From the NCBI GenBank assembly GCA_032718475.1, contig JAUCBJ010000649.1, positions 1 to 53,648 on the forward strand: a DNA stretch of 53,648 nucleotides, in the 5' to 3' direction. Source of the stretch: Nemertoderma westbladi (Eukaryota; Animalia; Xenacoelomorpha). Below are positions 2,401-34,656 of this stretch, piece by piece. Under the pieces are notes generated by a model. The model did not search any database. It was not told where the DNA came from and was given only the letters and a program-made list of their open reading frames with translations. The position numbers were made by a program, and so were the translations under genes. Each line of letters opens with the position of its first letter. Position 1 is the stretch's first letter.

Positions 2401-2979
2401 GAGATACTCGATAAAGTTATTTTATAGTTCTGTAAAGTAATAATATACTTAGAGTCATATAAATGTCCAATATATTATGTAATTAATGCTTCATTATTTA
2501 TTTATACAGCTTATCATTATATATAGGATTTCTTCTACATAGGTATCATTCACTATATAGGAACGTCGTAAGTAAGTATAAAAATTATTAATATCCTCGT
2601 TCACTCAAATAGGAATGCTTATCATTGTAATATGGAGTTTCAATAACGTTTCGTTTCTTCAATAGTATTTCTTCCAAGTCTCTTCTCGATTATCTGCTGC
2701 TGTCCTATGTTAGCACTTGATACATTATGCAATAACCATCAACCGAGGTCATCCAATCCTGTAGTTCCCGCCGATGTTATCTTCTGCTGAATTATTTCCA
2801 GACTCGTTTTTGATGAGGCAGCCATTAGATCATGACTTGTAAAGTTAGTTTCGTTTTTCCATATAATAACGCTCCTGTTCCTTCGTGAAGAAATAGAATC
2901 CGAGGTGTATACCATGTCTATTGTTTCATCTGAATGTTTTCCTCCTGCCGTGTAAGATTCGAATCATAGTAACCACTTG

Positions 2980-3450
2980 TCCGGGTTTCTTTCATGGCTT
3001 TCAGAGCGTTTATGCCCCCTGAATATCTGAATTCCTGACGAGCAGCATGCATGGCATTAATATTGTCTGCAACTACAGTGCTTGTGATGTTTCCTTCTAA
3101 GGGTAGTAGTTTATTATTCTCTACTGTAGGACGCATTGGATTTTTCCCATTTGAAATCTAATTGATTGGGTGAAAACCCATTAATATTAGTTAATGCATT
3201 GTGATCAGCAACTGCCCATGCCACTGCCACATCACTTTCACATTTTTCTTGAGCCATTATCTTTTGAACATCTAAGCCAAGACCTGCATTCTGCCATATT
3301 CCTCCATGGTTATCCCAACTGGGCGTATATATTTCTCAAAATTCTCATAAGAACAAAACATCAACTGCTCCTTGACCTTTAAATATAAATTGTCCGCTTA
3401 GTTATTACTTTCTCCAGTCCGTCTTCACCGGTTAATTCAGCAATTGGTAT
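2980..3450 (-). pseudogene. GalEa-like Copia remnant, left part (gag fragment joined to an integrase C-terminal fragment)
   Basis: Minus-strand translation gives IPIAELTGEDGLEKVITK..NLYLK..YENFEKY (gag-like), then AWAV..NAL.NINGFSPNQL..LEG..TSTVVADNINAMHAARQEF (GalEa integrase C-terminus-like). It continues in frame from 23563-23672 across the element 1 insertion. Confidence 0.7.
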
Positions 3451-5629
3451 TGTAAAGTCCAGTAGTATACCGTTTACCGGATCCTAGTAATGATGTATCG
3501 TACCGTAAGATCCAGTAGTGTATACGGGCTCGTACAGTATCTGGCAATAAATCCAAGTCCAGGGTGTCTAAATAAACAGATACAAGTACGCGATCAACTA
3601 CTGGCGAGGAACAGAGCCTGGTGTCTATTCTAAATATGTGAGCGAGTCAAATGCCTGACGAACTAGACAAAAGGATACCTGTCCTCTAACCGGTGAGGCA
3701 GATGTACAGTCTACGGTGACAGACCAAACTCACGAGGAAACAATCCCCGCACAGCGAATCCTAACTATTGCTAACGGACCTAAATACCGTAAACCTGCCG
3801 CGGTGTGTTTTATATGGTTTATATACGAGCTAGTGGATTAACAGACTGGCATAACAATACTGACCAGTACTAAATCAGTCAAAGGGGGGTCGTGCCTAAT
3901 GTAACAATACTGTGAGCAGAAAAAACAGTCAAAAGGGGTCGTGCCTAAAGTAATAATACTGTCGCTCAAGTAAAACAACAGTCTAATAAGTAAATACTCC
4001 TTCTTGCCGTAACTAAATCAGATCCTAAATTTACAAGCTACGAACAGTAAAACTATAAAATAGATTCGGTCTGAAAGTAACCTAAAGTAAGCTATAACTA
4101 GTAGAGCTCTAAGGGTGCATATGTTTTAGGGCATTTGTGTGTGTGTGTATGTTATGAATAAAACAGTTTTGGCGTACTCCATTGTACTAGGTTATAGTGA
4201 ATTTCTGACCGAAACAATACCGTGCGCTAGCTACGAAAATAAGCTAGTCGCGCTCTGTAGGGCTTATACTTACAAAATGACATCAAAGCTCTCTCCTTCC
4301 TATCCACAACTCAACCGGGCAATTACGGTGTTAGTAACTACACCCGTGATCGGCACAAATACCAGATTCTGGTTGTAAGATAAGAAATAGGGGTTAATTG
4401 CTACCGTACGTTAGCTGATCTGGTATACAATTTGATTCTAGAATTTTGTTGCTGTGGTGGTTAGCAGCAATACCTATCAGTACGTGGCAAGGTGCGGTAG
4501 GATATTAATAAAACCTCCCTAGGCCAAGCGAGTGCCAGTAGCAGAAATACACCTTGCCTGATCAAATAACGTGGGTCAGGCAGGTGGGGGGGGGGGGGGG
4601 GGGGGGGGTACTAATGTATAAACTACAAAATGAACCGGTACCGAACTGTCAGTATTGCAAATCACTAAATTATGGAATGTATGCTGTCTGTACCTAATGT
4701 GTACTTGCGTACTGACGAACAGCAATAGTTCACACCTGTAGGGAATACAGGTTAATCCGGGGATTTGTCGTACTGGTTCTACTCTGAAGCTTAGTTATTT
4801 GATCCTAAATTTTGCGGCGTCCCAGGACGGCATCACGCTTACCCTGATCTATAGGTCTTACGGTGGGCAAGGGCGTCAAACAAAGTCTTACCTTCCTCTG
4901 AATCGGGTGCTGCATAGCAAAGGTATTTCGAAGGGGCGAAGGGGGTGCATGGGCTAATCTATTGTGGGCGCTAGCGTGTTGTGGACATCTTTCCCTGCGT
5001 TGCTGATGGCCTAACAGTCTAGGCAGCCATCCTCCAAATGCTTGGCTGTCCCAATAGTGGGCAAAGGGAAATATACATGTTCAAAGTTTACAGTATATTT
5101 ACGTAATTTACAAAGATTTATCAAACAAATTTAATCTAAAGATATGACAAGAAACTAATGTGATAACTAAAGTAAGTAATAACGTAATGATGTTGTTGTA
5201 ATGTGTGGAGTGATAACCGAGGGCAAACTGGCCCTTATATAGCAAATCTGGGACATATAATCCACTAGAACATTCCAGAGTATTCCATGGCCTCACATTG
5301 GAGCAATAAGATGTTCTATGCCCAATGATTGGCCCAGCTCATCGTTCCATATGTTGTACGCACCTCATTGGTTTATCTAATCAAATCAATCAAAACATAA
5401 ATAGCCCAAAAATGCAAATTTCCCGACTGGGATTCGAACTCATAACCTATCTGTAATGTAACCAACGCCTTAACCATCTGACCACTGCGCCAATAGAGTT
5501 ACCTATGGATTTATGTGTACCAATATGAATAGGCATATTACATTACTGTAATTTAATCAAAATGCGTTGGATTTTAGAAAGTTTTTACGTTAAGCTACAA
5601 ATGCTACCTTATAGTGAAATAATCCATCA
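3451..5629 (-). repeat. 3' LTR of element 1 (2179 bp)
   Basis: Direct repeat of 21404-23562 with tgtaaagtcc...aatccatca ends. About 19 substitutions in the first ~520 bp by eye (~96% identity). Confidence 0.97.
5422..5491 (-). ncRNA. tRNA-like Pol III cassette in the 3' LTR
   Basis: Minus strand has A-box TGGTCAGATGG, B-box GTTCGAATCC and a TTTTT run just downstream. The cloverleaf is imperfect. Confidence 0.55.
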
Positions 5630-6427: not shown

Positions 6428-9400
6428 CTACAACGCTAGGAGGGAGTCTAAGGGGTGGGACCGTTCCGTCGCTGACACCTCACTCTCCGACGTCGTCTGA
6501 ATCCTCATAGGATCTGGTAGAACATATCCTGTCCCTCCACGTGGTTCTCTAGGAAGGGAAACCGTGCCCCGAGTCATCCGGATTTGGGACTTCAATGTCG
6601 TCCTCTCGGCGACATTTACTACCTTCTTTATTTTCTGTCCGGCTTTCTGGGCTCTAAGTATACTAAGTTGCGGATCTTCCTGTGGGGGACGTGTCTTTTC
6701 GGCTAACGGTGTGGTCCTGAAGCCAGTCTCACGCAAAACGTCCACCTCATCTAGAATACACGAGGTTATGCGTTTGTGATAAAATGCGCTTCGGTATGCC
6801 CAAGCTATCGAATGCCAGGCTCCTCGATTCCGCTGTTCGACTCGCAATTTGTCGAATTCTCCGGCGGTAATCTTATTCACCACAGTCTGAAAGTTCCATG
6901 TGTTCTTATTGTCGGGGTGTACCTGTAGAAAGTAGTCCCTAACAACTTTAAATCCGCTATCCAATGGCAATATATCTAGCACCTCCAAAAGTTCATCGTA
7001 TTGAGGCATAGCTGACACGTATCCGTCTTTCGACATGATGAGAGGGTTTACGGCCCAAAATCCCAAATGCGCTCTCATGGGGAAATGGCATCGCTGCGTC
7101 GACACATGCTCGTCTGCTAGATTCTCCCAATGGTCGAGTAGCTGTTTAACGATTTTAACTGACATATGCTCATAGGGAACGTCCCTAAGTTGGCACTCTG
7201 ATGCCCTATGACCTTTAATATTGCAATACAAGCACTGCGCCACGAAACACCAACAAGTGTAGAAAGTGTGTGAACGTTGATCCCCACACCAGTTGCACAC
7301 TAAATTCGGTAGAGATATGTGTTTCGCTCCACATTTCTTTGTGTGATGGCTAGTAGCCCCGCATCTGCCACAAATGGTGTTGGCAGGATACCAAACTCGC
7401 TCATAGATGAGATCTCCAATGGGGCGAGCGCTACCGTCCACGTGATAACTCTCATCATCCGGGTCAGTCGGTATATTCATCTCCATAGGTTGTACACAAA
7501 CCATGGCGTCGCTTTTCTCTAACTCGCGTATCTCAGTTCGCATCTTCCTCGGAAGGTTCTCTTCTATTTCTATGAGTTGCCGCAACGGCTCGTCTATTAT
7601 CGCGGACTCGGTCGAATCCTCATCGTCATGATGGGCGGTAGGCTCGTGAGCCTTCCAGGATCCTTCCGGGCCTTTGAATTCCGCGTGGCGTTCCCCGTCG
7701 TAGGGTACTAACGTCAACATCGACGGTCTGTCGACTAGGCTTCCCGTGTGAGTAAGATAAACATCCCTAAAAATGCTAAGTCCCGCTTGCGTGAAAACTT
7801 CGCAGTGCGCATCGGTGTTATAAAAGGGTTGGAGAAATCGGCGGAAAACATCAGTATGCATCCTTCCTCTGTCGTAAATGGTATGTCCTTCCCCGAGACA
7901 TAACGGATGTCGCTTTAGAGTCCTAGACACTACATTTGCTATGAAGCATACATTCACCGAAGATTCGATCGCCAAATAGTATTGCAAGATTATTCGTGGA
8001 GGTGAGATAATCGCCCAGTACACGCAACCTTGCCACTTCAACTGTGACTCGAACTCGTTTACGCCGGGGGTATCGCCCTCACCGTATACGTCCGTGTATT
8101 TGCTCCTCTTACTCTCTTTGTAATCCCAACTGAACATTAGATATGAGATATAACCCGTTCCAGTTTTTAGCGTGTTATACTCCCTGAAATATCCTTGCTC
8201 GATAGCCCAAAGCAACAATGGTCTAGTATCCACATATGGCGTAGGCAATCGATCCTCCTCCTCGGGCATTCCTGCGAAATCGCTAATAAGGTCATCCCAT
8301 ACACCGGATCCGATCTTGACGATACTTTTATCAAGTACAACGTCTCGCACGGCCTTTGGCAACATCCTAGCTTCTATGCTACAAGCCAGGTCCATGGATT
8401 TAACTATCCGTTTTATCATCGCGTGTCTTTGCGTCATTCCTTCCAGCATAGGCATCTTTCTGTCACTCCTCTGTCGGCTGAAGACATGTAACACTCCATC
8501 GGGTGCTTGAATTTGTATGGTCTTTGAAGTGAGGCTCTGCTGATGGCTTCCTCCTTCATTATCATAAAACATATAACCATTCTCCTGCAGAGATCGGCTC
8601 GTTGCGTCCCAATCATCGAGTAAATCGTCGGTAGGGTTCCAAATTCTCCCTATGGACTTTTCATCGTCAAAACTAATAGGGTTTCCTGTCCAATTGGTCG
8701 CAATATCGGTGTCGGTTTCGAACGTGCCGACTCCGATCCATAATCAAATCATTTTCGCCAAATATCCTCGCAAGATACAAGGTGCGATATGCGTCCCCGT
8801 GCGATCCACTTCCTTAAAGTCCGTAATATGTGGAGGCATATTGCATACGATTTCCTGAACTATTGTTCTACGCAACTCCGCCGCCTCTAACACATCACCA
8901 AAGGTAACCGATGGGAGGAAATCCAGGTTCGAAATGATCTCCGGGTGTTCAACTATGGGGATCTTGTAAGTTGTCTCCTCTCGGGTTGGTATGCTAATAG
9001 GAAAGCTGGTTGGTCTCGCGACTGGTACTACCGCTTTAGTAGGATAGGGCTGAGGTTCTCGCGTCATCTCGACATGAGGTATCTGTAGTCTCTGCGACAA
9101 ACGCTGAGCAAAGGTGATACTATCGAAGAGTTCAGGTGTCATCTCCTTAGGTTCAGTTTGATCGTAGGATATCCAGTAAAATGGTAGGCTCGTGAGCCTT
9201 CCGCCAAACTCCTCGATCTCACCTTTCTTGTACGCTTTGTACGCCCTATAGAGGCTCAAAGCTTCCCGTTTCTCTTGTGTTGACTTATTAGACTCGTCCA
9301 CTATCATACTATAGATGTCTGGTTCGACTAATTTGGGTTCGTAAATAACAATTTCGCCCGCGTTCAGTTCACTCATCTTAAACGAATGGTACGGATTCGT

Positions 9401-10013
9401 CAAAGGGTATCCGCCTTCTTGGAAACGCAGACTTTCATGGTATGAACATCGTGCTAATATCGGCTCGGGGTTCTCCGAGTTCAAGCGCATAGGAATCGCG
9501 TTGTCTTGCTCGCGCATACATCCTCCACATTTGTAAAACAGTTTATAAATGGAGAACGCGTCCTTTGTCTCTGGATCCACTCCTCGAGCGCGTCTATAAA
9601 GATGCATTCCGTCAAATTCGTCCCTAGCTGCAGGCAAGGGTTCGCTCGCCGTCAAATATTGCAGTGTATGATATAATCGGCATATCTCCGTGTCTGGATC
9701 CTTGCAAATGTCACTGGCGTCGCATAACGCATCGTAGGGATACAACGCATTGAACTCCGCGCATAACTCCTCCGCTCTTTTGTTATAAGCGTCCAATCCC
9801 TGTTGCGTAACATTCGGGTCCGCCTTGGATTTAGAGAGCTTGGCTGCACTCCTAGCCATACTCTCCACTCCAAACACATTAAAGTTGTTGGCTCCGTAAC
9901 GATTAAACGGTGCCTGGTGCTCCTGTTCCTGTGTAAATCCATGACGTAACTCCTTATAAATCTTCTCCGCCATCACATACGCGTATATATGGTTACATAT
10001 CGTTACGTTTCTA
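6428..10013 (-). CDS. Accessory protein: N-terminal CxxC..CxxH region, DEDDy 3'-5' exonuclease and three CCHC-type zinc knuckles (one internal TGA at 8744-8746)
   Basis: The 410-aa and 714-aa ORFs are in one frame, separated by a single TGA and 57 open codons. Motifs: ExoI ISFDDE, IQIQAPDG, LPKAVRDVVLDKSIVKIGSGVWDDL (ExoII), YVDT, W..SPP..LQYYLAIE (ExoIII, D replaced by E). Knuckles: CGRCGATSHHTKKC, CNWCGDQRSHTFYTC, CLYCNIKGHRASEC. Branch point CTAAC (10036-10040) and acceptor at 10013/10010. Confidence 0.8.
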
Positions 10014-10689
10014 CTAGATGAAGCACAAAATAGAGGTTAGATGTGAGGATACTTCGAGTTTTGTCGGCTTTTGGCTCAACTTTGCTCTAAAACCCCTACC
10101 CATTTGCCTAATGACTTTGGGTTTTGCGTGATTTCGCACTGGCTCCTAATCCAAAAAATGTGCCGATAAAAAACGAATTCCAGGTAAACTAGCCGCGAGT
10201 CTAAAATACTCACCTTTTAATTTCCCAAACTACTTACCAAAGAAAATTTTGCAGTCGAGAATTAATTTGGTCTAAGATAATAGTAGACACGACTACGTAG
10301 AATAAGGCCGATTTTCTTTTCCAAAAAAATTTATCGGTAGGCTCGCAAGCATTCCATCCGCTCTTGTCCTCCCCAATTTTTATTTTTATCTAGCTGTATT
10401 CTAGAATTCGCATTCACTGGAGAACCATTTTTCTTAAATTTAAATCCAACCAAATGGATTTGTCTAATAATTTTTGAAAATTGTCTCACTTGTGGGTTCC
10501 AAGTGGAATTCCATTCCTACTGTACACACAATCCCGCTCCTATGTGATACATAAGGGTACTACCCTCCATGTTCACATATAAAGACAATGGAATTCCACC
10601 GCTGTCTCTATCTACAGTGAAGAGGAATACAATGCATATACAGTAATACAAAATACTAAATTACTAAAATACGGTAAGGCTATGTGGCA

Positions 10690-11912
10690 TAGGGTAGGTC
10701 GATTTTTACTTTTTTTGGATATCTAGATTTTCTCATTGATAAAAAGTGGCCTTGGGTCCTAAAACTTTGTAGAAACGAAATTTTAACTCCTAAAAATTAT
10801 GTTTGACCCCTGCACTGGACGTCGTCCAGTTCCCGCCCTAGCCGCTAGTGAGTCATTTTCCCAATTATTGTGATGATCAACTTCTAGTATTCCTACCGCA
10901 TTGATATTATGCTCATTAGAACCGCAATGACCGATTTAGTTGGTGTAGACACCTTCAAAACAAGCATAGAGCGCTAAAAATTATGTTTGACCCCTGCACT
11001 GGACGTCGACAAGTTCCCGCCCTAGCCGCTAGTGAGTCATTTTCCCAATTATTGTGATGATCAACTTCTAGTATTCCTACCGCATTGATATTATGCTCAT
11101 TAGAACCGCAATGACCGATTTAGTTGGTGTAGACACCTTCAAAACAAGCATAGAGCGAGTAGTTTTTGAGATATTGCAGAATATGTGAAGTCCGGTACAA
11201 GTCAACATTAGCGCCTTGATGCGGTATTGACAAATACACTAAAAATGATACTTTTAATTATCTCAAGGCATCCACAATTTACACATAACTGCAGTGATCA
11301 ATTTAGGGGATGTTGAAACTCTAATAATATGAGTTCAGTGATTAGTTCTCGAGTTATTGTACAAAACGTCTGGACTGAGTCAGCTCAATATAAGGTCATT
11401 AATTGGTGGACCTAACCTTGACATTTTGTACAATAACTCGAAAACTAATCACTCAATTAATATTTTTAGAGTGTCAACATCCCCTAAATTGATCATTGCA
11501 GTTATGTGTAAATTGTGGATGCCTTGAGATAATTAGAAGTATCATTTTTAGTGTATTTGTCAATACCGCATCAAGGCGCTAATGTTGACTTGTACCGGAC
11601 TTCACATATTCTGCAATATCTCAAAAACTACTCGCTGTGTGCTTGTTTTGAAGGTGTTTACACCAACTAAATCGGTCATTGCGGTTCTAATGAGCATAAT
11701 ATCAATGCGGTAGGAATACTAGAAGTTGATCATCACAATAATTGGGAAAATGACTCACTAGCGGCTAGGGCGGAAACTGGACGACGTCCAGTGCAGGGGT
11801 CAAACATGATTTTTAGGAGTTAAAATTTCGTTTCTACAAAGTTTTAGGACCCAAGGCCACTTTTTATCAATGAGAAAATCTAGATATCCAAAAAAAGTAA
11901 AAATCGACCTAC
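10690..11912. mobile_element. Foldback/MITE-like insertion with ~493-bp inverted arms
   Basis: 10694-11370 is the reverse complement of 11420-11912, apart from a 184-bp tandem duplication in the left arm (10790-10973 and 10974-11157). Spacer is 49 bp. Possible TSD TGGCA (10685-10689, 11913-11917). Confidence 0.9.
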
Positions 11913-11938
11913 TGGCAACCATCAAGGGTCCCACATCT

Positions 11939-13415
11939 CTATATACTAAGATTGGATGGAGATTTGTAGTCTCCTGTCTCGTTTCTAGTCTCCTCAAGGA
12001 GCACAAGACGTTGTACAGGCCTATCTGCAGTACGTCCGTCAATAGTCCATACAGTAACTGTCCTTACTACACCAGATGTAGGGTGCGTGGTCAAAATGAC
12101 TTTAGTCAGCCAAAACCGTCTTTTCAGATTGGTTTCAGCCAATAAAACATGGTCACCTCGTCTCAAACATTGGGTATTAAGATACCAAGAGGTTCTGGTC
12201 GAAATAGAGGGTAAATAGTGCTTCTGCCATATTTCCCAGAATTTGTTGGCTAACAACTGAGTGATTTTCCAAGCTTTGTTGCCGTATCCATCACTATCGA
12301 CAGGTACCGAAGTGGGCAACAATGTTGTCGGCGCCTGCATAAGCAGGTGCGCTGGTGTCAAGGCAAACTTGGGGATCAAAGCGATCGGTCTGGTATTCAA
12401 AACCGCTTCGACTTCTATTAACAACGTCGTCAGTTGGTCGTCTGTCGAAATGCGTTGCGTCGGTATTACTTTCGCCATAGCTGTTTTAATTGAGCCAATC
12501 AGCCTTTCCCAAACGCCGCCTCTCCACGGACTGTTGGAAGTGTTAAAGCTCCAGACAATACGTTGAGGATGCAGTTCCTTGGAAATCTGGTTTTGGTCCA
12601 ACTTTTTTAAAGCTCTGGTGATTTTATTCCGTGCACCCACAAAGTTAGTCCCTTGGTCGCAATAAATGGATTTGACCAATCCACGTCTAGCAATAAATCG
12701 CCGTAAGGCTAGGATAAAGGCGTTGGTGGTTAAATCTGTCACACGCTCAATATGGACAGCTCTGCTGGCCAAGCAAGTGAAGATCAATCCCCAGCGTTTT
12801 ACCTGTACCCTTCTGCGTTTCGCAATTATGGGTCCAAAACAGTCTATCCCTGTCTCAGTGAAAGGGGGTCTAAAAGCCTGTAATCTCGCTAGTGGTAGTT
12901 CACTCATTTCTTGGTGACCTATCCTCGCGTGCACCTTCTTACAAATCATACAGTTCCGTGTTACCGAACTCAATGCCTTGCTAGGCCTAATCAGTACAAA
13001 CCTCGAGCGTAAGTGTGATAAACAGTGATGCCTACCTACGTGTTTGAGTCATACATGTGTGTCCAGTATCATAGCGCACTGTAACTCATGGTGTTGCGGT
13101 ATGATGATAGGATACCTAAAGTCAAGTGCAAAGTCGATGTTTTGGAGTCTGGACTTGTGACAAAGTAAGCCCCTATAGATAATCGGACTCCAACTCAAAA
13201 TCGGTGAAGACTTGATCTGTTTACCCTGATTGATCACTGTGAACTCTCGTGCGGAATATCGCAATTGATAATGTCTAATAATATCAACTTCACAAAGACC
13301 AGCTTCCTATAAGGTAAGTCTTCTAGGAAAGTCGCGTTTGCCTCTGGCATATTGTCTCAAACGTTTGAGCCATGCTAACTTGCGGCACGCTTCAGTCCAT
13401 GATCTAGTTAGGTTT
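11939..13415 (-). pseudogene. Bel/Pao integrase (Zn-binding, DDE core, C-terminal domain), interrupted upstream
   Basis: PPFTETGIDCFGP, LIFTCLASRAVHIE, CDQGTNFVGA, GGVWERLI, FWEIWQKHYL, RPVQRLVLLE. Stops and frameshifts at 13049 and ~13310-13417. Confidence 0.93.
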
Positions 13416-13416
13416 A

Positions 13417-14982
13417 CTATCCTGCCAACGTAAGTGTTGGTGACGTCATCAGGCAAGGTATAGTCGAAGTGTGGATACTTGTTCGGACTTGGTATGGTAG
13501 GCCCACGGGCCTTCCGGTAGGTGTCTCCCTTTGTGCAATAGGTTTGTCTGAGTCCTCAAGTAATTTAATCTCCGCGGTCTTACCTTTACCGTCCGCACCC
13601 AGTGAATTGACTGGCAGTAACGGTTTCAACTCTACAGTACTAGTGCGTTCCCGTGAGCTCGTAAGCTTCCTAACCTTAGTCACACGTTTACCTGTAGACG
13701 GTAAGTGAAGTATTTTCCTTGAGTGGAGTGTGATTGCTGTGGCCGCACCTTCGTCATCCAAGGAAGTCAAATTTGGTAAGTTGTCAATACCTAATGGGTG
13801 TGTACTAGTCCGCTCCAATGGATTCATTGCATCCTTGTAGTACACGTTGTTTCTTTCCAACAAGTCATCTAGTGGAAAGTCTAGTAGACAGTCTGGTGAG
13901 GCGTCCGGCGAACAGTCTGGTCAGACGTCTGGTGAGACATAGCGCGGAACTTCCAGCAAAATGTCCTGTCGTTGGTCCCAAAGAAAGTCTGGCGTAGCTC
14001 CTGTCAGAATGTCTGGTCTAAAGTCTAGTGGACAGTCTGGCGAGACATCCAGTAGACAATCTGTTGAGAGTTCCATAAAACAATCTGGCGAATAATCCGG
14101 AAAACAATCTGGTGTCGTTTCTGGTGAATAATCTGGCGAGACATCTGGTGAACAATCCGGCGAAACGTCTGGTGAAATCTCCTGCGGAACATCTGGTGAA
14201 AGATTCGTATGAACGTCTGGTCGAGAGTCTGGTGAGACGTCTGGCGTAATGTCAGGTCTAATGTCCAGATCATCAGATTTTGTCTGTCCTTGTTTACTCT
14301 TGACCTTGGCGTTGGCTTTCGCTTTGGACTTGACAACAGTGTCGATTTTTATCTCGGCACCCTCCGGTATGGTATTAGTTGTTGCGTCAAATAACGGTGG
14401 CCATTCGTCTGATGGTCGTTGTAGGAAATTGGGTCCTCTAAACCAAAAGGATTTATTGTCTGGTTTACAAAAGTCAATAGGTAGCATCCCCTGTGACGCG
14501 ATGTCAGCTGGGTTCAGCTTCCCTGGACAGTGACGCCAATCTTGTTTGAGCGACCGGTCCAATATTTCAGCCCGTCTGTTGGCTATGAAAGTCTTGAACT
14601 TGAATGTTTTGTTGTTTATGTACCAAAGTACCAACGTCGCATCCGTCCAATATGTGACCTTCAAGTTAGCCTCCAGCTCGCATTGTACTAAACTGACAAT
14701 ATCGGTGGTTATCGTCCCGGCTTGCAGCTCTCCACGAGGTACAGTCATATACTTCAATGGCATTGTTCTAGCCCTTGAAGTAACGAGAGACACTTCGTAG
14801 CTGTCTGATGTCACTTGTCGTCTAAGGTATATAGTAACCCCCAGTCGATCCTTACTAGCATCACTGAAGCTGTGAAGCTCTAAATCGGCAGGAAAGGTTG
14901 TCTGCAAAGGAAAGTATACCCTCAGTATGGTATAGTCTTGTAAGAACGTCAGTTGGGCTTCCCAGCCCCTCCATTGCTCAGC
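13417..14982 (-). pseudogene. Bel/Pao RNase H (Pao peptidase A17-type) domain plus expanded SPD-repeat linker
   Basis: LHSFSDAS, TVPRGELQA, YWTDAT, WRHCPGKLNPADIASQG, WFRGPNFL. In-frame stop at 13921. Confidence 0.92.
13880..14260 (-). repeat. 12-bp coding minisatellite (SPDV/SPDC/SPDY) within pol
   Basis: About 30 degenerate copies of a TCGCCAGACGTC-like unit. Confidence 0.85.
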
Positions 14983-15942
14983 TTACTTTTCTGGCATGGG
15001 GTCGTCCCATTCCAGTCCGGCTTGCCAAATGCTGCGGAGTATGATCCTGGCATTTAGGATCACTGGGCTAATGAAACACAATGGGTCATACAATCGACTC
15101 ATGGTCGATAAGCAAGTCCTCTTAGTGAGAGGTCTAATCTGTCCGTTGGACCTTACACGTACCCTAAAGTTGTTGGTGTTCTGGTCCCAATTAAGTCCTA
15201 ATACCTTGGACGTAGGTAGAGGTTCTAGGTCTAAGTCCAAGTCTCCTCCACTGTGATCTGTCGGGTCGAATGAGTTCACTAGTTTAGGTTCGTTGGAAGC
15301 GAACTTCGTGAGGTGAAATCCGCCCTCAGCGAGACAATCTTGGAGTTGGTGTGCTACGGTCATAGCGCGCTCCAGAGTGTCACAACTCTTGAGGCCTTCA
15401 TCCACATAGAAGTCTCGTTCCACTGTCTGAGCTAATTCTGGGTCGAATTGGTCTTGTCTGTCTAATGCTGTTTGCTTCAAGGCATACATGGTGCAGTTGG
15501 GGCAATCCCTGGCTCCGAAAACTCTTACCTGCATTTTGTAAGTTTCTGGCGGAAGTTCTAAATTTCCGTCCGGGTACCAAAGAAACCTTAAACTATCCCT
15601 GTCCCGCTCCAAAGCCTTAACCTGGCGAAACATAGCCTCTACATTACAGGTGAAAACCACTTTGCATTGACTAAAACGCATTAGGACTCCCATGAGGTAA
15701 TTATTCATATTTGGCCCGTCCATCAGTTCGCTGTTCATAGACATCCCTTGGTAAAGTGCGGCGCAGTCATTGACTACATGCACCTTGCCAGGTTTGTCCG
15801 GGTGTCGAACAAAATGATGTGGCAGGTAATATATTTGATCTGTGGTTACCTCTGGATTTAACATCCTAATGGCGTATCCCTTTTGGAGATACGACTGAAG
15901 TTGCGCATTGTATTGCATATGGGCCGTCTCATCACGCAACAA
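14983..15942 (-). pseudogene. Bel/Pao reverse transcriptase
   Basis: YYLPHH, KPGKVHVVNDCAA, MFRQV, VFGARDCP, FYVDEG (catalytic YVDD changed to YVDE), KVLGLNW, YDPL. Flanked by in-frame stops. Confidence 0.93.
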
Positions 15943-17217
15943 TCACTGCCTTATTGATTTTAGTCGCCGAAAAGCAAGCAGGTAGTTGTTAACGAGCTTA
16001 GGTTGTCCATGGCGCCACAACATGCCAACTTCGTAGTGGCCATTCGGGGTCTGGCGAATGGTATCTCTCATTATATTTAATGATCGTTTTTCCTGTTCTG
16101 ACATAGCGGTCTTGTAACTACCGGGTTCTGCTGAGTCCTGTTCTAACCATTTAATGGTCAATTCAGTCAGCAGTCGGTCAAGTGCTGCTTGCACTGTGCC
16201 ATAGTCCTCGTCTACATCGTCGTCCTCTGTGGTGGCTAGTGTCAATGTGTCTGGTAGGCTCGCAAGCCTTCCGGTGTCACTAGTCGGTGTCGAAACTTTG
16301 TGAGGCGGTTTGACAACCTTCTGATCTGTCGGTAGGCTCGCAAGCCTTCCAAAATCCTCGTTAATCGAGTCATCCACAGCAACAACCCTTTGGTCTTCGG
16401 TAGACAATACAACCTGTTTCGCTGCAAGTAGCTGTAAGTCAGAGGTCCGTGTGGTCATGTCCAGATCAGTTACATCAGTATCAGTTACGTCAGTGTTAGC
16501 GACGTAAGTCTGTCGTAGTGCAGTCTGTACAATTGGACCACAGGAGTGTGGAGGAGAATTATCTATCGTGGTAGTCAGTAAACTACACGTACTTAAAACG
16601 TCGTCCTCCTGGTCACTTACCTCTAGTGAACGCACTGGTGCTCTAGTATACCAACCTATGGGAGTTCTACATGCATAGGGGTTGCCCGCTGTAATAACAG
16701 ATGGGCGTGTCTCCCATACCTGATGTAAGTTAAACTGGTCTGTCCCAATAAACATTGCGATTGAGCGATAATTAACAGGACATTCTGGTATTCCAAGGTG
16801 TCGGAAATACTTACGATCTTCCGGTGATTGCTCTGGCACAGGGCCGAGCAAGTTACTAAAGTCCTTCGAAGCTGCAAAGGTCAAATTTCTTACCGGAAGT
16901 AATGAGCGCTCCTCCTTACTGTGTTCCGCTTTGGAAAGAAGAGTGTCTAAGGTTAATTTTACTCTTGTCACAGGAATCGCTCTCTTACCATGCATGCTGC
17001 TTACAGTATACTGAGCAGTCTTACCTTTACTCATGTCAGTAACTACGTCGGCTACTTGTTCGTCTACGTAACAACTATGCGATGACGCAGAGTCTAAGAT
17101 AGCATATATACGCTTGCTCCCTCGGGTTCCGGTAATCTTTATAGGAATCACGCTAAACCCTTTTAATTGGTTCTGTGTGAGGAGTGTTATCGATGGTTGT
17201 TCCTCCCCCGCATTCAC
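15943..17217 (-). pseudogene. Bel/Pao aspartic protease and PR-RT linker
   Basis: YAILDSASSHS, MFIGTD, PYACRTPIGW, GHYEVGMLW. Confidence 0.9.
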
Positions 17218-20200
17218 GTAGAGGTGTCGTCTTCCTCCTCATCCTCGTCCGATGATCCAGATTGATCCATACAATCAGTATAGAATGTGCAAATCTCACG
17301 CAGCACACACTCCTTATAAAGTGCATCGCATCTAGCCGCTTTATCTGGATGCTCTCGTCGAAAGCGTTTGGTCGGAGTATGACTATTTGTATGGAGTAAT
17401 GCATCGTGGTTACGTCCACATAGAGGACATGTATCATCGCTCGGGCAATCCTTCCGGATGTGTCCAGGCTTGGTACATTTCCAACAAGAATGCAACAATC
17501 GAATTTGGAGTCTCCTTTCTTCAACTCCCAACTCTCTAAAAGCGCGACATCCACGTGGTTTCTGCCGTTCCGTTCGCAATATGAGCATCCCACAAAGTCC
17601 ATCGGCAACTGTTGTCATGGCTGCTTGGTGCCAATAGGCGTCAGAACTTTAGAAGTTCCCATTGGGGTGGCATAAGTCACGGCTTTCGCGTTCATCGGAA
17701 ATGGTTTGTTCCGATTCGGCGCAGCAATAGCTATTCCTTCTGCCGCTATATGGTTGTCAGTGTAGTTTGATCGAGTCTCAACCACGGCCTCTCGCGAAAT
17801 CAATTGGTTGACGTCGGTAAGTTTTAATAGACCGCTGGCCTCTTCACGCTGATACTCAATACGTCGCCATTTTCGTCATAATCAATGATGGAGTCGACCG
17901 ATTATCCTAATTAGAACTGTCGGTGCGTTGGCGTACTCGAGTTGTCTGATGGACCGTAAAGTCCCTATAGCGTTCTTGATTTCGTCCGCGAGTCGTAGAA
18001 GATTGATCGGTTTCGAAATGCTTCCTCCTCTACAGAGGTCTTCGATAATAGATTTAGCCATTGCTACGCTGCTGCCATAAATTGAAAACAAGCGGTTGTA
18101 CGCCAACTCAAAGGCATTCGGAACACCGATAAAGGTCTCCGCTAATCTTTTCGGCTCACCAGATAGTACTTGGAGCAAGTAGTTAAACTTCTCCGTCGAG
18201 GTGAAGGCACACTTAGCGATCTGGGACTCTACGTAGTCTACCAGCGTACGCCAGTGCTTCGCGTTGCCAGAGAACTTCGGTGGTTGTTGTGCTGGTAATC
18301 CATGTCTGGCCGCAAACTTCGCAATCTCGTTAACCAAATCCAACTGTCCGCGTCTTTGTTCGGTTACGTCGTCCAGTCGTTCCCTTCTGCGCATTGTCCG
18401 TTGGTAAGAAATATTAACGGGATCTTCTTCTCGATGGTTCGGAGTCTGTCTCGTCTCTTGTTCTCTCCTTGGTGGTCGATATTGTCTAGATCGTTCCAAC
18501 TCCATGCTGGGTCGTGATCGATCCGACGGTTGCGCTTTGAGTCGCTCTTCGAGTTGAGCTAGTCGGTCCGCCATCTCAGTGAACTGTTTGGCGCTAATCG
18601 CTTCCGCTGGTTGCAGAGTGGGTTTCTGTTGGGGTGTTTCTCGTGGAGGATTGTCGATGTAAAGATTCGTCGATCTTTCCTCTCGTTTGTAATTTTCTGC
18701 CGCTCCAGTATGAAATATTTCCCTCTCCGTCGACTCCGAGTCACTAGATGAATCGCTATCGTCCGGATAAGGTGGTTGGTGGGTTCGCGTCTGGCATATT
18801 GTTTTCGTCGGTTGTGTCCGTCTTCGTACGGCGTCCTCGGTTCTTCGTCGTTCGGTAGGCTCGCAAGCCTTCCACGAAGTGGTAGGTCTCGTTACACAGT
18901 GTGTCAAAGGTCGAATAAAGCAGCCAGGTTTTGTAGTCGGTCTGTAAATGACTGGGTTCGTGCAGCACTTTACAGGTTTAACTGCCAACGGCTTACTTAC
19001 CTGCTTAACTGTCATAAATACAGGTTCCTCTCTTCCTACAAGTAGACTACGGCTTACTGTAGGTGGACTACTTACTTTACCAGCTAAAATCGGTGATGAC
19101 ATCGCTCTAGGTTGCGGTATTTCTGTCACAACAAACCTGTTACCTTGCGTTGAGCGCACAGGTGATATTTCTTTTGGTTTTGCAACTAAAACCGGTTTTA
19201 TCGGAGTTGTGGGTTTGAGCATAGGAATCACTTGGGGAAAACGTTTACAGTAATCCTCGACGAACTCCCCTCCTCGATTTATCGCTCCCACACTTCCTTC
19301 CTCGATTCGCCTTTGAATCCCGCGATATCGAGTCTCTATGCAGTCCAGGGCAGACAAGTCATGTCTAGATTGAGACCTTATAGATCTGTCTCTCGCGTCA
19401 GAGTTCGAGGTCTTCTTGCGCGTTTGCTGCCTCGCACGATCTGTGATCTAGTTCGAATTGGAGCCGCATCTCCCTTTCGCTTTGATCGGCTACCTGTTGT
19501 TGCGCTGCTCGCTACGCTTCCTGTATAGCTAGACGAGCGTTTATTTGTCGCGCCTCCAACTTTGCACGAGTGTCGGATGCCGCCTTCTTCCGTACTAACT
19601 CATCGGCTGCTGCCTGTCGTGCTGCTGCCGCTGCGGCTGCTTCTTGCGCCAAGTCCTCCTCCAGTCTCCGCATTTCCGAGGCTTCGAATTCGGCTTGAGC
19701 CTGGAGTTTCGCAATTCTTGCTTCGTCTTCTCTACATTGTTTCTCTCCCTCGATGGCGATCTGTGCCATCTGTCGTTGCGCTTCTTCCTCGGTGACTTGT
19801 TGTTGGCGTGCGACCTCCTGTTGTTGTCGAGTAATTACAGACGTCGTCTTACTAACGTCACCAACATTGCTCCGTACACTAACGAATGATCTATCCATTG
19901 GTGGAATTTGGTAGGCTCGCAAGCCTTCCGTAGTTAGAACTTCCGTCGTCATCGTTGGTGAGCGTCTCTAACCTCCCGTCCAGGCGATAGAGTTCTTCTT
20001 CCTCTTCGGGTTGCAACAACGTGTCCGAAACTGACTCACCTAGCAGTTGGTCGAACTGCTCCTGTTGAGCCAATCTTATTACTGACTTAAACTGGATGAG
20101 GCTTTCCCTCGCACTTACCAACTTATCTATTATCTTTACCTGAGTAAATTTGTCGCCACACAACTCCGCAAGTTTGTGTAAACCTTTAAGTTTATCTATG

Positions 20201-20604
20201 GAAACATGTACCCTACTTTCTACCCTTACCTGTAAGGTGTAGAACTCGTATCTCGACATCGGGGCGGTTAACCCGCGTAAAACGCGAAAACCTTCTCCGA
20301 GGTTTCGAGTAATCTGGGCCATGTGTCCTCCTATACTCCTAATAACATTTTCTTGGCTTCCCGCCAAGCTTACCATATCTGGTTCCCGCGATCCGGTCTG
20401 CGGGATGGTAAGGAAATCTTCGATTCTGCCGTCGCCACGCATTGCAGCTTCCGGTATTTCTGTTTGGGGTACCGGCGACGCACGCGGTGTGACATCGGTA
20501 GAATCTCGGGTTCTCCTTCTCGGTTCGTCTACTGTCAATCTGTCCGGGTCGCACGAGTCATAGTCGGTAGGTGGGTATCGAGTCAAATGTGGTGTGTCAC
20601 TCAT
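17214..20604 (-). pseudogene. Bel/Pao gag, broken into five or more ORF pieces
   Basis: Start MSDT, coiled-coil segment, DUF1759-like PPKFSGNAKHW..EKFNYLLQVLSGEP, and knuckles CWKCTKPGHIRKDC..CPLCGRNHDALLH. Multiple frameshifts. Confidence 0.9.
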
Positions 20605-20968
20605 GTCTTATTATATACGTCAAGTACGGGTAATAAAAATGTCAAAGTATCAGAATGTCAAAATGTCGAAATGTTCAAACTTACCTTAGTATATATATAT
20701 ACCATATATATACCCTAACTGGTACAAATAAAATCAAAGTATATAATAAAATATGTAATAATCTAGTCTACTGGCTAAATTTGTACGAATAAGTGTGATA
20801 ACGGTATACGTTACCAAAATGTAGATCAACAAGTACAAATAATAGGCAAAACAGCAACGTCTAATGGGAAAATAAGTACCAACAACACTACTAATTAGAC
20901 AGTGGAACCCACAAATTTTGAGTACTACTGTGCTCTTAAGTTTGAACGACATGAGTCGTAAAACTTAC

Positions 20969-21153
20969 GCTCCTTTGATCTTCCAGTCATGCAAATTCCC
21001 AAATACAAACCGGACGTGGGTCGTTCCGTTTTCGGCATCGCGGACGAATTTTGTGTCTCCCAAACTTTGCGAAAAGCGGTCTAATCCCTCGAAGTGGTCC
21101 AGAAATGAGTCCTTGAGTCCTGAAAGGTCGAAGGTGAGAGTTTTACTTCTACT
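20969..21153 (-). CDS. Putative internal coding exon in the element 1 leader, predicted to splice to the accessory ORF
   Basis: Flanked by TTTTTTGCAG| and |GTAAGT, open for 61 codons, and ends in phase 2, matching the phase-2 acceptor at 10013/10010. Confidence 0.5.
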
Positions 21154-23167
21154 CTGCAAAAAATCTTCCTAGGTACCGATACAACTTGGTCTTTAAACCC
21201 TATGTACCTTTTCAAGTACCGAAAGTAACACCGCACACACACAGCGTAAAACAAATTGCTACAAACTAACTATTAGCTAGTCAAATATTAAATACGAAAA
21301 CTACTAGCTACCCTAAAGGCCTACTGAAGCAATGTACAAAATGTTGCCTTTCAGAAAGGACAAATAGTATTCTTACTAAATATTTAATAAGAATATTCCC
21401 TACTGTAAAGTCCAGTAGTATACCGCTTACCGGATCCTAGTAACGATGTATCTTACCGTAAGATCCAGTAGTGTATACGGGCTCGTACAGTATCTGGCAA
21501 TAAATCCAAGTCCAGGGTGTCTAAATAAACAGATACAAGTACGCAAACAACTACTGGCTAGGAACAGAGCCTGGTGTCTATTCTAAATACGTGAGCGAGT
21601 CAAATGCCCGACGAACTAGACAAAAGGATACCTGTCCTCTAACTGGTGAGGCAGATGTACAGTCTACGGTGACAGACCAAACTCACGAGGAAACAATCCC
21701 CGCGCAGCGAATCCTAACTATCGCTAATGGACCTAAATACCGTAAACTTGCCGCGGTGTGATTTATATGGTTTATATATGAGCTAGTGGATTAACAGACT
21801 AGCGTAACAATACTGACCAGTACTAAATCAGTCAAAGGGGGTCGTGCCTAATATAACAATACTGTGAGCAGAAAAAACAGTCAAAAGGGGTCGTGCCTAA
21901 AGTAATAATACTGTCACTCAAGTAAAACAACAGTCTAATAAGTAAATACTCCTTCTTGCCGTAACTAAATCAGATCCTAAATTTACAAGCTACAAACAGT
22001 AAAACTATAAAATAGATTCTGTCTGAAAGTAACCTAAACTAAGCTATAACTAGTAGAGCTCTAAGGGTGCATATGTTTTAGGGCGTGTGTGTGTGTTACA
22101 AATAAAACAATTTTGGCATACTCCATTGTACTAGGTTTTAGTGAATTTCTGACCAAAACAATACCGTGCACTAGCTACGAGAATAAGCTAGTTGCGCTCT
22201 GTAGGGCTTATACTTACAAAATGACCTCAAAGCTCTCTCCTTCCTATCCACAACTCAACCGGGCAATTACGGTGTTAGTAACTACACCCATGATCGGCAC
22301 AAATACCAGATTCTGGTTGCAAGATAAGAAATAGGGGTTAATTGCTACCGTACGTTAGCTGATCTGGTATACAATTTGATTCTAGAATTTTGTTGCTGCG
22401 GTGGTTAGCAGCAATACCTATCAGTACGTGGCAAGGCGCGGTAGGATATTAATAAAACCTCCCTAGGCCAAGCGAGTGCCAGTAGCAGACCTTGCCTGAT
22501 CAAGTAACGTGGGTTCAGGCAGGGGGGGGGGGGGGGGGGGTACTAATGTATAAACTACAAAATGAACTGGTACCGAACTGTCAGTATTGCAAATCACTAA
22601 ATTATGGAACGTATGCTGTCTGTACCTAATGTGTACTTGCGTACTGACGAACAGCAATAGTTCACACCTGTAGGGAATACATGTTAATCCGGGGATTTGT
22701 CGTAACTGGTTCTACTCTGAAGCTTAGTTATTTGATCCTAAATTTTGCAGCGTCCCAGAATGGCGTCATGCTTACCACGATCTATAGGTCTTACAGCAGG
22801 CAAGGGCGTCAAACAAAGTCTTACCTTCCTCTGAATCGGGCGCTGCATAGCAAAGGTATTTCGAAGGGGCGAAGGGGGTGCGCGGGCTAATCTAATGTGG
22901 GCGCTAGCGTGTTGTGGACATCTTTTCCTGCGTTGCTGACGGCCTAACGGTCTAGGCAGCCATCCTCCAAATGCTTGGCTGTCCCAATAGTGGGCAAAGG
23001 GAAATATACAAGTTCAAAGTTTACAGCATATTTATGTAATTTACAAAGGTTTATCAAACAAATTTAATCTAAAGATATGACAAGAAACTAATGTGATAAC
23101 TAAAGTAAGTAATAACGTAATGATGTTGTTGTAATGTGTGGATTGATAACCGAGGGCAAACCGGCCC

Positions 23168-23174
23168 TTATATA
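23168..23174 (-). promoter_or_regulatory. Candidate LTR TATA box (TATATAA) with upstream CCAAT boxes
   Basis: Minus-strand GCTATATAAGG ~390 bp into the LTR, with CCAAT motifs near 23233, 23263 and 23302. Conserved in the 3' LTR (5235-5241). Confidence 0.55.
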
Positions 23175-23354
23175 GCAAATCTGGGACATAGAATCCACTA
23201 GAACGTTCCAGAGTATTCCATGGCCTCACATTGGAGCAATAAGATGTTCTATGCCCTATGATTGGCCCAGCTCATCGTTCCATATGTTGTACGCACCTCA
23301 TTGGTTTATCTAATCAAATCAGAGCGAAAATAAATAGCCCAAAAATGCAAATTT

Positions 23355-23424
23355 CCCGACTGGGATTCGAACTCGTAACCTATCTGTAATGTAATCAACG
23401 CCTTAACCATCTGACCACTGCGCC
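23355..23424 (-). ncRNA. tRNA-like Pol III cassette in the 5' LTR
   Basis: GGCGCAGTGGTCAGATGGTTAAGGCG...GAGTTCGAATCCCAGTCGGG, then TTTTT. Confidence 0.55.
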
Positions 23425-23562
23425 AATAGAGTTACCTATGGATTTATGTGTACCAATATGAATAGGCATATTACATTACTGTAATTTAATCAAAATGCAT
23501 CGGATTTTAGAAAGTTTTTACATTAAGCTACAAATGCTACCTTATAGTGAAATAATCCATCA

Positions 23563-23780: not shown

Positions 23781-25998
23781 ACACCCTGACACCAGTAGGC
23801 ATGAGACACCGGTTACTCCTGTACCAGTAGACTTTACTGCAGTAAGGTCTGGTACAGATAACCCTATTTCTACAATAAGCTCCCATAACTCTTAGGTCCA
23901 AGGGTGATCCTAACATCCACATCCCGGGTCTCCTGTCTTCTTCGGTTTTGTAATCTGTATATATGTCAGTACCTCGTATCGGGTGTCCTGGGCTACTGTT
24001 AGAGCCTCTTCAACTGTTGCTTGTTTATTACGTCTAGCTCCCTCAACTTCTGTGTTTCTTTATCTTTATATAGTTAATCCATTACCATCTGTTGTAGCAC
24101 ACCACATTTTTCCTTATAATATGTCTTCCCTCGTCTTCTATGTAATCCCTCGGTCCGGGTTTATTCCAATATAGATTGTAATTATCTGATGATGTTCCCA
24201 CATCATTTAATACTTGTTGTACCGCAATACCTTTTCCAAGGTATCTCGTCCCATCATCAAATATCCTACCACAATATATATCCCGTTGGCTTGATTATTC
24301 GTCGTTGCTCTATCATTCGACTCGCTCCTCGCCATATCCGTACTGATTGCATTCGTGATAGCCTAACCGGTGGACTAGGTGATCTACTCCATAATAATAT
24401 AGACTTCTCATCCGAGTCAAGATTCCAACCCATGCGACTTTTTACTGCTGCTTTGTAGTCCCAATACTCATCTTTCTTGGGTACTATATTTTCGTCTTCA
24501 TCCCTTTGGATCCTTTGGACCGCACTACGTGTCTTTCTATTTCCATTATCCTCATCCGCATGGGCTCAAATCTGGTGGCCATCCAATGCCTGTATTCTCT
24601 ATCAGTCCTGGTATCTGTTGCTTGTTGTGTCTATGTTGCCATTGTTTAGATAAGATCAGAAGTACACATAGTACTGGTTCATCGTCGTCACAGTTCACTA
24701 TCTGGAAATCGCTAAGCTGCATATCGCGTTGCAAGCTAGATATCCCTATACTACTACTCAATTTACTCAGACAGATCGCCATCCTGTCCATCGGATACTT
24801 TAGTTCCTTGTTATCTAATACATTGAAATGTAAATCATCAGTATTGTAAGCGATAACGTTTCCACTTCCTAGTCCTCATAATGGTTTGGTTGCCACTATT
24901 AGTGCCTTCCTCATCGTCATTACCATTCTTCCAGTCTTTCAAAACTTCATCGGTTCTTCACCTTATGATGTATGCCATAAGCAGATACAAGAAAGAATTC
25001 AGTATCGTTTTTTCTTGTATTATATATTCCTGTTGGATTTTGGTTAAGTTGCCCTTCGTCCAACGCCATTTCTTCCATGGTTTAGGTCTCTTGTTTGCGA
25101 AATCTTCCACTACAAGCATCGTCTCTGGGTATCTTGTCTTATACTTCCTCCATTCAATTGGTTTCTGGTCATGTTGTCCCAGTACGATTGTGATACTTCC
25201 CATTGAAGTACGCTGCATCCATTTGATCATCCCCATGCTGTGTATGATCCTTGCCATTCCATCGCCACTGTAAATCTAATGTTGTGCCTATGTATCCACT
25301 CATAGTCTTGCCGATATCCTTTGTAATGTCCGAACTGTATAATATGTTCATTCTATCCAATATCAGGTGCCGTACTTCATCCGGTATCCTGTCATCCCTG
25401 TGATCATTCCTCATTACCTAGAATATGTATATGTCCCCGTCCAGATTGGACACGTGTAGGAAGCGCCTCCAACTTTGCCCTCCATATCCATTAATAGAAT
25501 ACCCATTTCTTTATCTCGTTTCTTGAAGGCCATCCATTGTTTACCCATTAGGTGCTTTGGCGTTTCTCCTTGGTTTTGATGTAGGTGCATCCTCGCTTCC
25601 ACTACATTATTTATTTGCAGCCTCCCATACATATTCGTCAACATTTCTTTATGTGCTAACCAGAATTTCTTCTATAACGCTGCCTTTCCATCATGTCTCA
25701 CTATCTTCACAGACTTGGATAGACTCATCATTGGACTTTATGCCACTCTATAGGGCGTCCCTCTTTATCAATGAGTTCATTTATTACTATTACCTTTCTA
25801 TATTGTATCTATAATGTTATGTTTCAATATCTTTAATTAAATTAATATAAACTTATCCTAGTGCCTAAATAATTTAGTAGAATCATAATCAACCCACTAT
25901 CCTAATCCTAATTTATTTTAGAGTTAGTTGAGTTATCCATTTGTTTCTCTTGTGGCTGTAAATAGCCATAATTGTACGTCACTCAAACAAATAAAAAT

Positions 25999-27081
25999 GC
26001 AATAATTTTTATTGTCCGTTTAAATCACTCATGATGCCCTTTTTTATGACTTTTTATGTCCTCCAGAAATTTACCATTAGGTTCCATGCTACCGGTTTCT
26101 CTACTGCTTTTCTCTCAGGCTATCAGTACCGGTATTAGTTTTTTTTTTATTTTTTTATGTCCTCCAGAAATTTACCGTTAGGTTCCATGCTACCGGTTTC
26201 TCTACTGCTGTTCTCTCAGGCTATCAGTACCGGTATTAGTATATAGAGCACTATTTTGCAGTATTGCATGTACAGATGTAGGTATAAAGCAGGTATTTTA
26301 GTACCGGTACCGGCACCGGTACTGCTGTATGCCTACTGTGTAGCCTACCATTTAAATACGGTACTGGTAGGCCTACCGGCTGACCAGTTGTTTTGGTTAG
26401 AAAATCCCGCCTCTGTAACCTGCTCCTTTCCCTGATTTGGTAAAGTGACCGTTTATTGTTTTGGTTAGAAAGGCCCGCCTCTTTAACCTCCTCCTTTCCT
26501 TCATTTTGTAAAGTGACTGTTTACTGTTTTGTTTAGAAAATCCCGCCTCTGTAACCTGCCCCTTTCCCTCAATTAGTTAAATGATCGTTTATTGTTTTGG
26601 TTAGAAAATCACGCCTCTGTAACATGCTCCTTTCCCTCAATTAGTTAATTGATCGTTTATTGTTTTGGTTAGAAAATCCCGCCTCTGTAACCTGCTCCTT
26701 TCCCTCAATTAGTTAAATGATCGTTTATTGTTTTGGATAGGAAATCCCGCCTCTGTAACCTGCTCCTTTCTCTCATTTGGTAATGTTATCGTTTATTGTG
26801 TTGGTTAGAAAAGACCATCTATGTAACCTGCTCCTTTCCTTCATTTGGTAAAGTGATTGTTTATTGTTTTTTTTAGAAAATCCCGCCTATGTAACCTGCT
26901 CCTTTCCCTGACTTGGTAAAGTGACCGTTTATTGTTTTGGTTAGAAAGGCTAGCCTCTGTAACCTGCTCCTTTCCTTCATTTGGTAAAGTGACTGTTTAT
27001 TGTTTTGGTTAGAAAATCCGGCCTTAACCTGCTCCTTTCCATCAATTGGTAATTGTTTTTGGCTATAAAATGAGTGTTTTG
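25999..27081 (+). repeat. Repeat element with a unique head and ~10 copies of a 68-bp satellite
   Basis: Unit GTTTATTGTTTTGGTTAGAAAATCCCGCCTCTGTAACCTGCTCCTTTCCCTC... The head (26000-26380) is the reverse complement of 33850-34140. Confidence 0.85.
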
Positions 27082-27094
27082 GTAGGCAATTGTT

Positions 27095-34140: not shown

Positions 34141-34656
34141 GCTTTAATATCATGAACTTCCTGTGAGTAATAAGGGGCATCACGCCTGACTCGCCATACA
34201 CCATGAAGTTTGGTGTACTGGACTTTAGACCAATCTATACTTGAGAAAGGACAGCTGACGTTTTCGATATCATTGCCCGCATGGAAACCCCAAACTTCGG
34301 CACCATAATTCAATATTGGTATAATAAGAGTTGAAAATAGCGGAGATCAAATGATATATTCGAGAATTTGCTTAGATATCTGAATAGAGAAAAGAGTGCC
34401 TTCTTTGCTTTCATTGCCAGTGCCTTCTGCGCTACAACAAAACTTCCGGAAGAAGAAAACTCGTCACATCAGCAATGTTTAGCTTATCTACAAGTGTAGA
34501 GAGTGCTGTAGAAATGTATTGTAGTTAAGAGAACCAAGTACACTGCGTCTGGGATAATCGGGTTTGAATTTGTATAAGGGTAATATACCATTTAGTCTCC
34601 CTGATAAAGGGTTTAAGTTAAATTATTTACTGTCAGAGGAGGGTCCTCAAATAGGG

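Follow-up and report, generated by a model that had tools for sequence, protein, structure and literature searches.

How is an open reading frame (ORF) expressed when it lies near the 3' end of a retrotransposon, 10.6 kb behind the start of gag? An ORF in this position needs splicing, a promoter of its own or internal ribosome entry. The question is raised by a ~20-kb retrotransposon of Nemertoderma westbladi (assembly GCA_032718475.1, contig JAUCBJ010000649.1, positions 1-53,648 of the forward strand; this whole stretch of 53,648 nt is referred to as the window). The element runs from 23562 to 3451 on the minus strand, the strand of all its features described below, and carries an accessory ORF between pol and the 3' long terminal repeat (LTR). 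Based on the sequence, gag-pol is probably spliced out as an intron of ~11 kb, when messages with coding upstream exons and messages with a non-coding spliced leader are taken together. The coding form, a three-exon message composed of an LTR start, a 185-nt exon and the accessory ORF, may well be used, at somewhat less than an even chance.

The element is a member of BEL/Pao (Belpaoviridae) by its LTRs with TG...CA ends, a 5-bp target duplication (ATACC) and its Gag and pol domains. The 5' LTR (21404..23562, 2,159 nt) and 3' LTR (3451..5629, 2,179 nt) differ by substitutions at 3.8% of aligned sites, and 40 of the 62 transitions are at CpG. Stops and frame changes disrupt the gag-pol region (11939..20604) of this copy, in which Pfam found DUF1759, a zinc knuckle, Peptidase_A17 and DUF5641 in the order gag, protease, reverse transcriptase (RT), RNase H and integrase. 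The RT displayed 26-42% identity to 43 proteins, nearly all with PF05380, and, in a tree of RTs without named reference elements, was placed on a long branch within aquatic-animal elements and separate from three insect sequences. The polyprotein domains are those of BEL/Pao and not of the Ty3/gypsy chromoviruses to which Tf1/sushi elements belong. Compared to the sizes reported for BEL/Pao (elements of 4.2-10 kb, LTRs of 0.2-1.2 kb; PMC3118150), the element is twice the usual size at 20 kb and its LTRs span 2.2 kb.

The accessory ORF (6428..10036) comprises 1,181 codons from its first in-frame ATG at 9973, counted through an in-frame stop at 8746-8744. Other copies of the family were read from contigs of four DNA-type runs (X1 to X4, from three studies) over two stretches of the element. 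Both stretches were covered in all four runs, and the 2,800-4,900 contigs per run found in three runs for 4.2 kb therefore reveal a family of many copies. At the stop, 99-100% of depth differed from this copy in 4/4 runs; the stop is private to this copy. Programmed read-through at 8746-8744 was ruled out by this result and by the context (TGA TTA). All ten indel rows with a share of at least 45% fell within 10099-10630, in the spacer that follows pol, and none within 8660-10098, a span that includes the stretch from acceptor to ATG. By hand calculation this clustering has a probability of ~1e-5 if rows are independent and uniform, and they are not fully independent. With 3.6 kb interrupted by one private stop and no common indel, the accessory ORF is a family trait, which argues for a maintained gene. 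Coding differences between this copy and the family were synonymous in 10/28 cases (28 of the 29 rows listed, the stop row being excluded) against a neutral expectation of 34%, a result uninformative on selection and as expected for decay of this copy.

Among 79 related loci, the integrase end was visible in 65, and in 57 of these 65 a polypurine tract lay only 66-536 nt beyond it; the accessory ORF was unmatched at any of the related loci. The spacer of the 20-kb element (10037..10693, 657 nt) therefore came with the extra gene. It is present in other copies, where it is indel-rich, and includes an acceptor at 10611, an AATAAA at 10384 and donors at 10238 and 10214.

The protein encoded by the accessory ORF is not Env. 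Its highest 19-residue hydropathy values were 0.94 and 1.48, it has no hydrophobic start, and by hydropathy and homology searches we detected no clear signal peptide, no membrane segment or anchor and no fusogen homology. A preliminary description of this DNA had used the term 'env-like', which holds for the mode of expression but not for a protein that is without Env features. No homolog of either half was found in Pfam, the PDB or a word-indexed sequence collection, nor of the first half among 1.84 billion representatives. The Atlas search of the second half returned only a CCHC lead at 0.81, and single-sequence fold predictions were unusable (pLDDT 33). Three Gag-like CCHC zinc knuckles at ~7370-7190 suggest that the protein binds RNA. 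As a guess from these knuckles, it may be a soluble RNA-binding helper that functions in packaging, RNA protection or counter-silencing.

The splice sites and phases listed in the preliminary description are all present on the minus strand. ATG 22848 is followed after 24 nt by the phase-0 donor AAG|GTAAGA at 22825, such that the proposed first coding exon (22825..22848) reads MQRPIQRK. The acceptor TTTTTTGCAG| at 21153 opens the 185-nt exon (20969..21153), which ends in phase 2 at AGC|GTAAGT (20969), includes a second acceptor at 21119 and is free of stops only in frame 0, with one stop present in frame 1 and three in frame 2. Ahead of the accessory ORF, the region 10010..10040 includes a branch-point-like CTAAC (10040-10036), a pyrimidine tract and tandem AG acceptors at 10013/10010, each of which falls on the third codon position of the ORF. 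The joined product of ~1260 residues is obtained only by reading through the stop at 8746-8744 (1,263 residues); in this copy, translation would end after 491.

To judge site strength, the sites were scored among 955 donors and 1,305 AG acceptors. Two of the tables used, a vertebrate-like long-tract table and a short T-rich table, are approximations, and the latter was picked after the site had been seen; a third model was trained on ten introns of related elements and was blind to the tested sites, although the sample is small and from other hosts. By the long-tract model, acceptor 21153 ranked 189-204/1,305 and donor 20969 ranked 60/955; by the short T-rich table, acceptor 21153 ranked first. 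By the trained model, donors 22825 and 20969 ranked 11/955 and 51/955, and acceptors 21153, 10013 and 10010 ranked 45, 27 and 117 of 1,305, with the four proposed sites within the top 1-5%. Donor 22825 ranked 9-11/955 across models. An open exon of at least 185 nt that leaves in phase 2 was obtained in 23/300 random sequences by the long-tract model and in 0/300 by the short T-rich model. Taken together, the observed sites partly exceed chance. LTR introns are usual in the lineage of the relatives: they were found at 11 of the 15 related loci examined, where the donors read NNN|GTAAGT and the acceptors are short and T-rich.

Base composition provides a second line of support for the 185-nt exon. 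Its GC content (47.6%) is like that of coding regions and exceeds that of the adjoining sequences (34.4% and 30.2%). The highest-scoring GC-rich segment of the leader terminates at the donor, at 20968, and its score was reached by 3/2,000 shuffles. Splicing out of gag-pol, as first proposed, appears the likeliest route to the accessory ORF, and the 185-nt exon has independent support from this GC island and the site ranks.

The start of the coding message may differ from the one proposed. ATG 22848 and its 24-nt spacing to the donor are preserved in the 3' LTR, and this start is plausible. In other copies, however, a start codon at 22776..22778 abuts a second donor at 22776 (rank 4/955), which is in phase 0 to 21153; it was detected in 93-100% of depth in 4/4 runs, and both LTRs of this copy differ there. 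A start at donor 22776 is at least as good as ATG 22848. Two separate phase-0 pairs of start and donor (22848/22825 and 22776) thus enter one exon frame.

By the proposed coding route, transcription would begin from the LTR TATA box at 23174 (TATA-like box 23166..23175, a candidate promoter with CCAAT boxes ~60-130 nt upstream). Exon 1 would end at donor 22776, abutting the start of other copies, or at donor 22825 when ATG 22848 is used. The LTR donor would then be joined to 21153, and 20969 to 10013/10010, with the LTR and leader exons adding an N-terminal extension of ~75-83 residues to the accessory protein. Among the 15 DNA joints listed for each of the two stretches, none matched the proposed splices, and neither stretch spans both ends of the 11-kb intron.

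Several observations weigh against a coding three-exon message. With regard to the exon, the upstream edge of the GC segment is at 21246, 93 nt short of matching acceptor 21153, and codon usage does not favour frame 0 (0.112, versus 0.146 for frame 1). No substitution row fell on the claimed sites among the best 40 of 669 and the best 40 of 161, which does not by itself establish conservation of the sites, and the comparison of sibling copies that had been called for also revealed a 1-nt insertion within the exon, behind 21122, in 26% (X1), 20% (X2), 15% (X3) and 0% (X4) of depth. Loose contig ends imply a further +1 at 21032 (7 and 2 contigs). The 5% threshold used for this stretch was not applied to the accessory ORF, such that indels of the two are not directly comparable. 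The insertion at 21122 would be harmless if acceptor 21119 were used, which ATG 22848 with donor 22776 reaches in frame. With regard to the LTR, loose ends imply a 25-nt spacing of ATG and donor at 22831 (2 contigs), and the interval from the TATA box to 22848 includes three short upstream ATGs, with three or four preceding either LTR start. The phases carry limited weight as well: any in-frame match would arise by chance one time in three, the site thresholds of the preliminary description are passed by 15 in-frame two-intron paths, and 63/300 Markov sequences yielded at least one such path at equal thresholds. Finally, a donor at 20679..20685 is stronger than donor 20969, and the accessory ORF has a strong ATG of its own at 9973.

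These last two sites point to a message in which the spliced leader is non-coding, an explanation of modest probability in which the ~11-kb gag-pol intron is still removed but the phases and the LTR ATG are irrelevant. Donor 20685 or 20969 would be joined to 10013/10010, perhaps via an exon at 10611-10214, and translation would start at ATG 9973. Donor 20685 ranked 2/955 in both models and is 81 nt before the gag ATG (20604), and a position just before gag is that of the retroviral major donor. ATG 9973 is in a strong context (G at -3 and +4), and reading from either of the two earlier ATGs ends at once. A part of the family, moreover, tolerates frame-shifting indels in the 185-nt exon. A non-coding leader leaves unexplained, however, why this exon is open and GC-rich with a matching exit phase and why two phase-0 starts are found in the LTR, and its length would include many ATGs.

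An internal promoter is a somewhat weaker candidate and rather improbable. By this explanation, the 657-nt spacer would end the gag-pol message at AATAAA 10384 and start an accessory message with a 200-nt intron in its 5' untranslated region, from 10214 to 10013. Alternative donors at ~10207-10239 had been noted in this context. Of these, donor 10214 (ranks 3 and 14/955) falls in a stretch to which diverged contigs still align, but donor 10238 loses its GT in 23-100% of depth. The arrival of the spacer with the extra gene is in agreement with a promoter there, and the extra ORF of the maize element Grande has its own promoter, though in antisense (PMC7264820). By contrast, no TATA-like box was found at 10000-10800, and an internal promoter leaves the leader exon unexplained. 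Least probable, and unlikely, is that the sites match only by chance within an AT-rich leader and that the ORF is reached otherwise (by internal ribosome entry or other exons) or not expressed. This view is favoured by the paths found in 63/300 random leaders and by the neutral share of synonymous changes, from which substitutions do not show selection on the ORF. The site ranks, the GC step and a 3.6-kb frame broken by a single private stop and by no common indel speak against it.

The coding three-exon message gains in interest from the way in which the element may prime its reverse transcription. The primer-binding site (PBS) of BEL/Pao elements is typically complementary to a tRNA 3' end and starts with TGG. 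No TGG-type site was present after the 5' LTR in the 20-kb element, in a second BEL/Pao element of the window or in the 15 relatives examined. At the PBS position of the 20-kb element (21393..21403), the first bases behind the 5' LTR are complementary to a site within its own LTR (22670..22680) by 10 Watson-Crick pairs and one G-U; an 11-bp complement from the first base was matched by 58/16,396 and 20/4,000 controls. In the second element, for which the pairing was predicted beforehand, 11 pairs from the first base were found (5/17,014 and 4/4,000 controls). Both elements of the window thus display Tf1-type pairing, in which ~11 bases that follow the 5' LTR are complementary to a site in the LTR itself, and both are predicted from this pairing to be self-primed. 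A 12-bp hairpin (21367-21394) lies directly behind and overlaps the PBS of the 20-kb element, where a 66-nt stretch folds at z = -3.75. The second element (34657-46503, minus strand) is a distantly related BEL/Pao with LTRs 0.8% apart and a CCCTA target duplication. It has an open 1,235-codon gag-protease frame followed by ~3 kb of short ORFs, with no RT detected in the element, and its PBS (45258-45248) pairs with 46029-46019 and by 7 additional pairs beyond a small loop.

Relatives appear to differ in this respect. A contiguous match of at least 10 between LTR and PBS was found in none of the 15 relatives examined, all with a defined LTR end. In 11 of these (L002, L008, L013, L017, L022, L023, L049, L052, L055, L057 and L066, with L017 and L052 of one family), 10-15 bases of the PBS find a complement only across the junction formed when an LTR intron of 67-186 nt is spliced out, compared to 0-1 of about 101 controls for each locus; pairing of this type was not seen at L004, L046, L053 and L067. 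A splice-built primer was rejected for the 20-kb element, for which the best pairing was 9 pairs (15/202 controls), along with one of 5 pairs. A transcription start fixed by the primer at 22680, which would exclude the LTR exon, was considered but given up as unproven, as the primers of relatives lie behind an upstream exon. A possible 157-nt intron (22668-22824) from donor 22825 to acceptor 22667 was also noted, of which the pyrimidine tract is the predicted primer; acceptor 22667 ranked 4-7 in the models with approximate tables but 191 in the trained model.

Both LTR donors are upstream of the predicted primer, and splicing to 21153 would therefore delete the primer (22680-22670) and the PBS (21403-21393) with intron 1. 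Because intron 1 contains both, the spliced mRNA could not be reverse-transcribed, and RNA left unspliced at this intron would remain the template for replication. We tentatively suggest, as a possibility well below even chances, that one splicing choice in the LTR determines two RNA fates: unspliced RNA keeps its 11-base primer and is copied, while spliced RNA loses primer and PBS, gains the LTR start and makes a zinc-knuckle protein of 1,260 residues and of a new family. If this splice is true, the retrotransposon bars its accessory message from the copying pool by deletion of its own primer.

Similarities to known systems are partial. The env of gypsy is expressed from a spliced message (PMC1262188, PMC554778), as is the env-like ORF of Bagy2 (PMC7264820). 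Like gypsy env and the Env-bearing BEL/Pao elements roo, Kanga, Tas and Cer7, the 20-kb element has an extra ORF between pol and the 3' LTR; unlike these, its product has three CCHC knuckles, no clear signal or membrane segment and no detectable homolog in our searches. The proposed message also differs by its two introns and a start inside the LTR. Bagy2 and Grande (gene23) similarly have a large 3' internal region with an extra ORF, and the spliced and own-promoter routes both have precedent in these elements (PMC7264820). These plant elements are of a different superfamily and kingdom, however; the Grande ORF is antisense, and env-like ORFs often have membrane segments.

Self-priming has been described for Tf1/Tf2, Tf1/sushi and the plant Tcn1 and TAR lineages (PMC5341516, PMC6317226). 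The 20-kb element is similar to these in that it has no tRNA-type site and that bases behind its 5' LTR pair with its own LTR. These lineages are Ty3/gypsy or Ty1/copia, whereas the element here is BEL/Pao, and its complement is ~470 nt behind the best TATA box and downstream of two donors, such that it may not be at the RNA 5' end. In BARE1, translation and copying draw on distinct RNA pools, and a subgenomic message is produced by splicing (PMC3735527). In BARE, splicing makes Gag; here it would make the accessory protein and delete the primer. The small ORFs of the MDG1 group are unspliced and upstream of gag (10.1101/2025.03.14.642691). Further background is found in PMC3601003, PMC8220671, PMC554778 and PMC3383448.

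Neither spliced non-Env ORFs nor self-priming were found for BEL/Pao in the literature searched, a search that left subscription papers and Repbase and GyDB entries outside. To our knowledge, almost all extra genes known from BEL/Pao elements are captured envelopes. A knuckle protein of ~1,200 residues that is not Env and occurs throughout a high-copy family represents a new kind of cargo. The significance of the locus rests on this orphan gene and on the predicted link of splicing to self-priming, not on splicing itself.

Other features of the window were also recorded. Immediately after pol, the 20-kb element has a fold-back (inverted-repeat) insertion of 1,219 nt (10694-11912); its arms measure 280 and ~400 nt, it includes a tandem duplication of 184 nt, and it is probably a later DNA element. 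Within pol, degenerate 12-nt repeats (13868-14265) encode a PD-rich spacer that separates RNase H from integrase. A tRNA- or SINE-like stretch of the LTR (23340-23430) includes a T run and, as judged by eye, motifs similar to A and B boxes; ARAGORN and Rfam gave no match. Its depth bin was the highest of all in runs X3 and X4, and in X1 and X2 it was one of the highest. Beyond the 20-kb element, two 68-nt tandem arrays in inverted orientation (26320-27160 and 32210-33741) flank several short ORFs. Their inverted matches extend to 25991-26382 and 33849-34148, possibly as part of a large inverted-repeat element. An ORF at 48242-50269 (plus strand) includes 45-48-nt coding repeats and a fibrinogen C-terminal domain.

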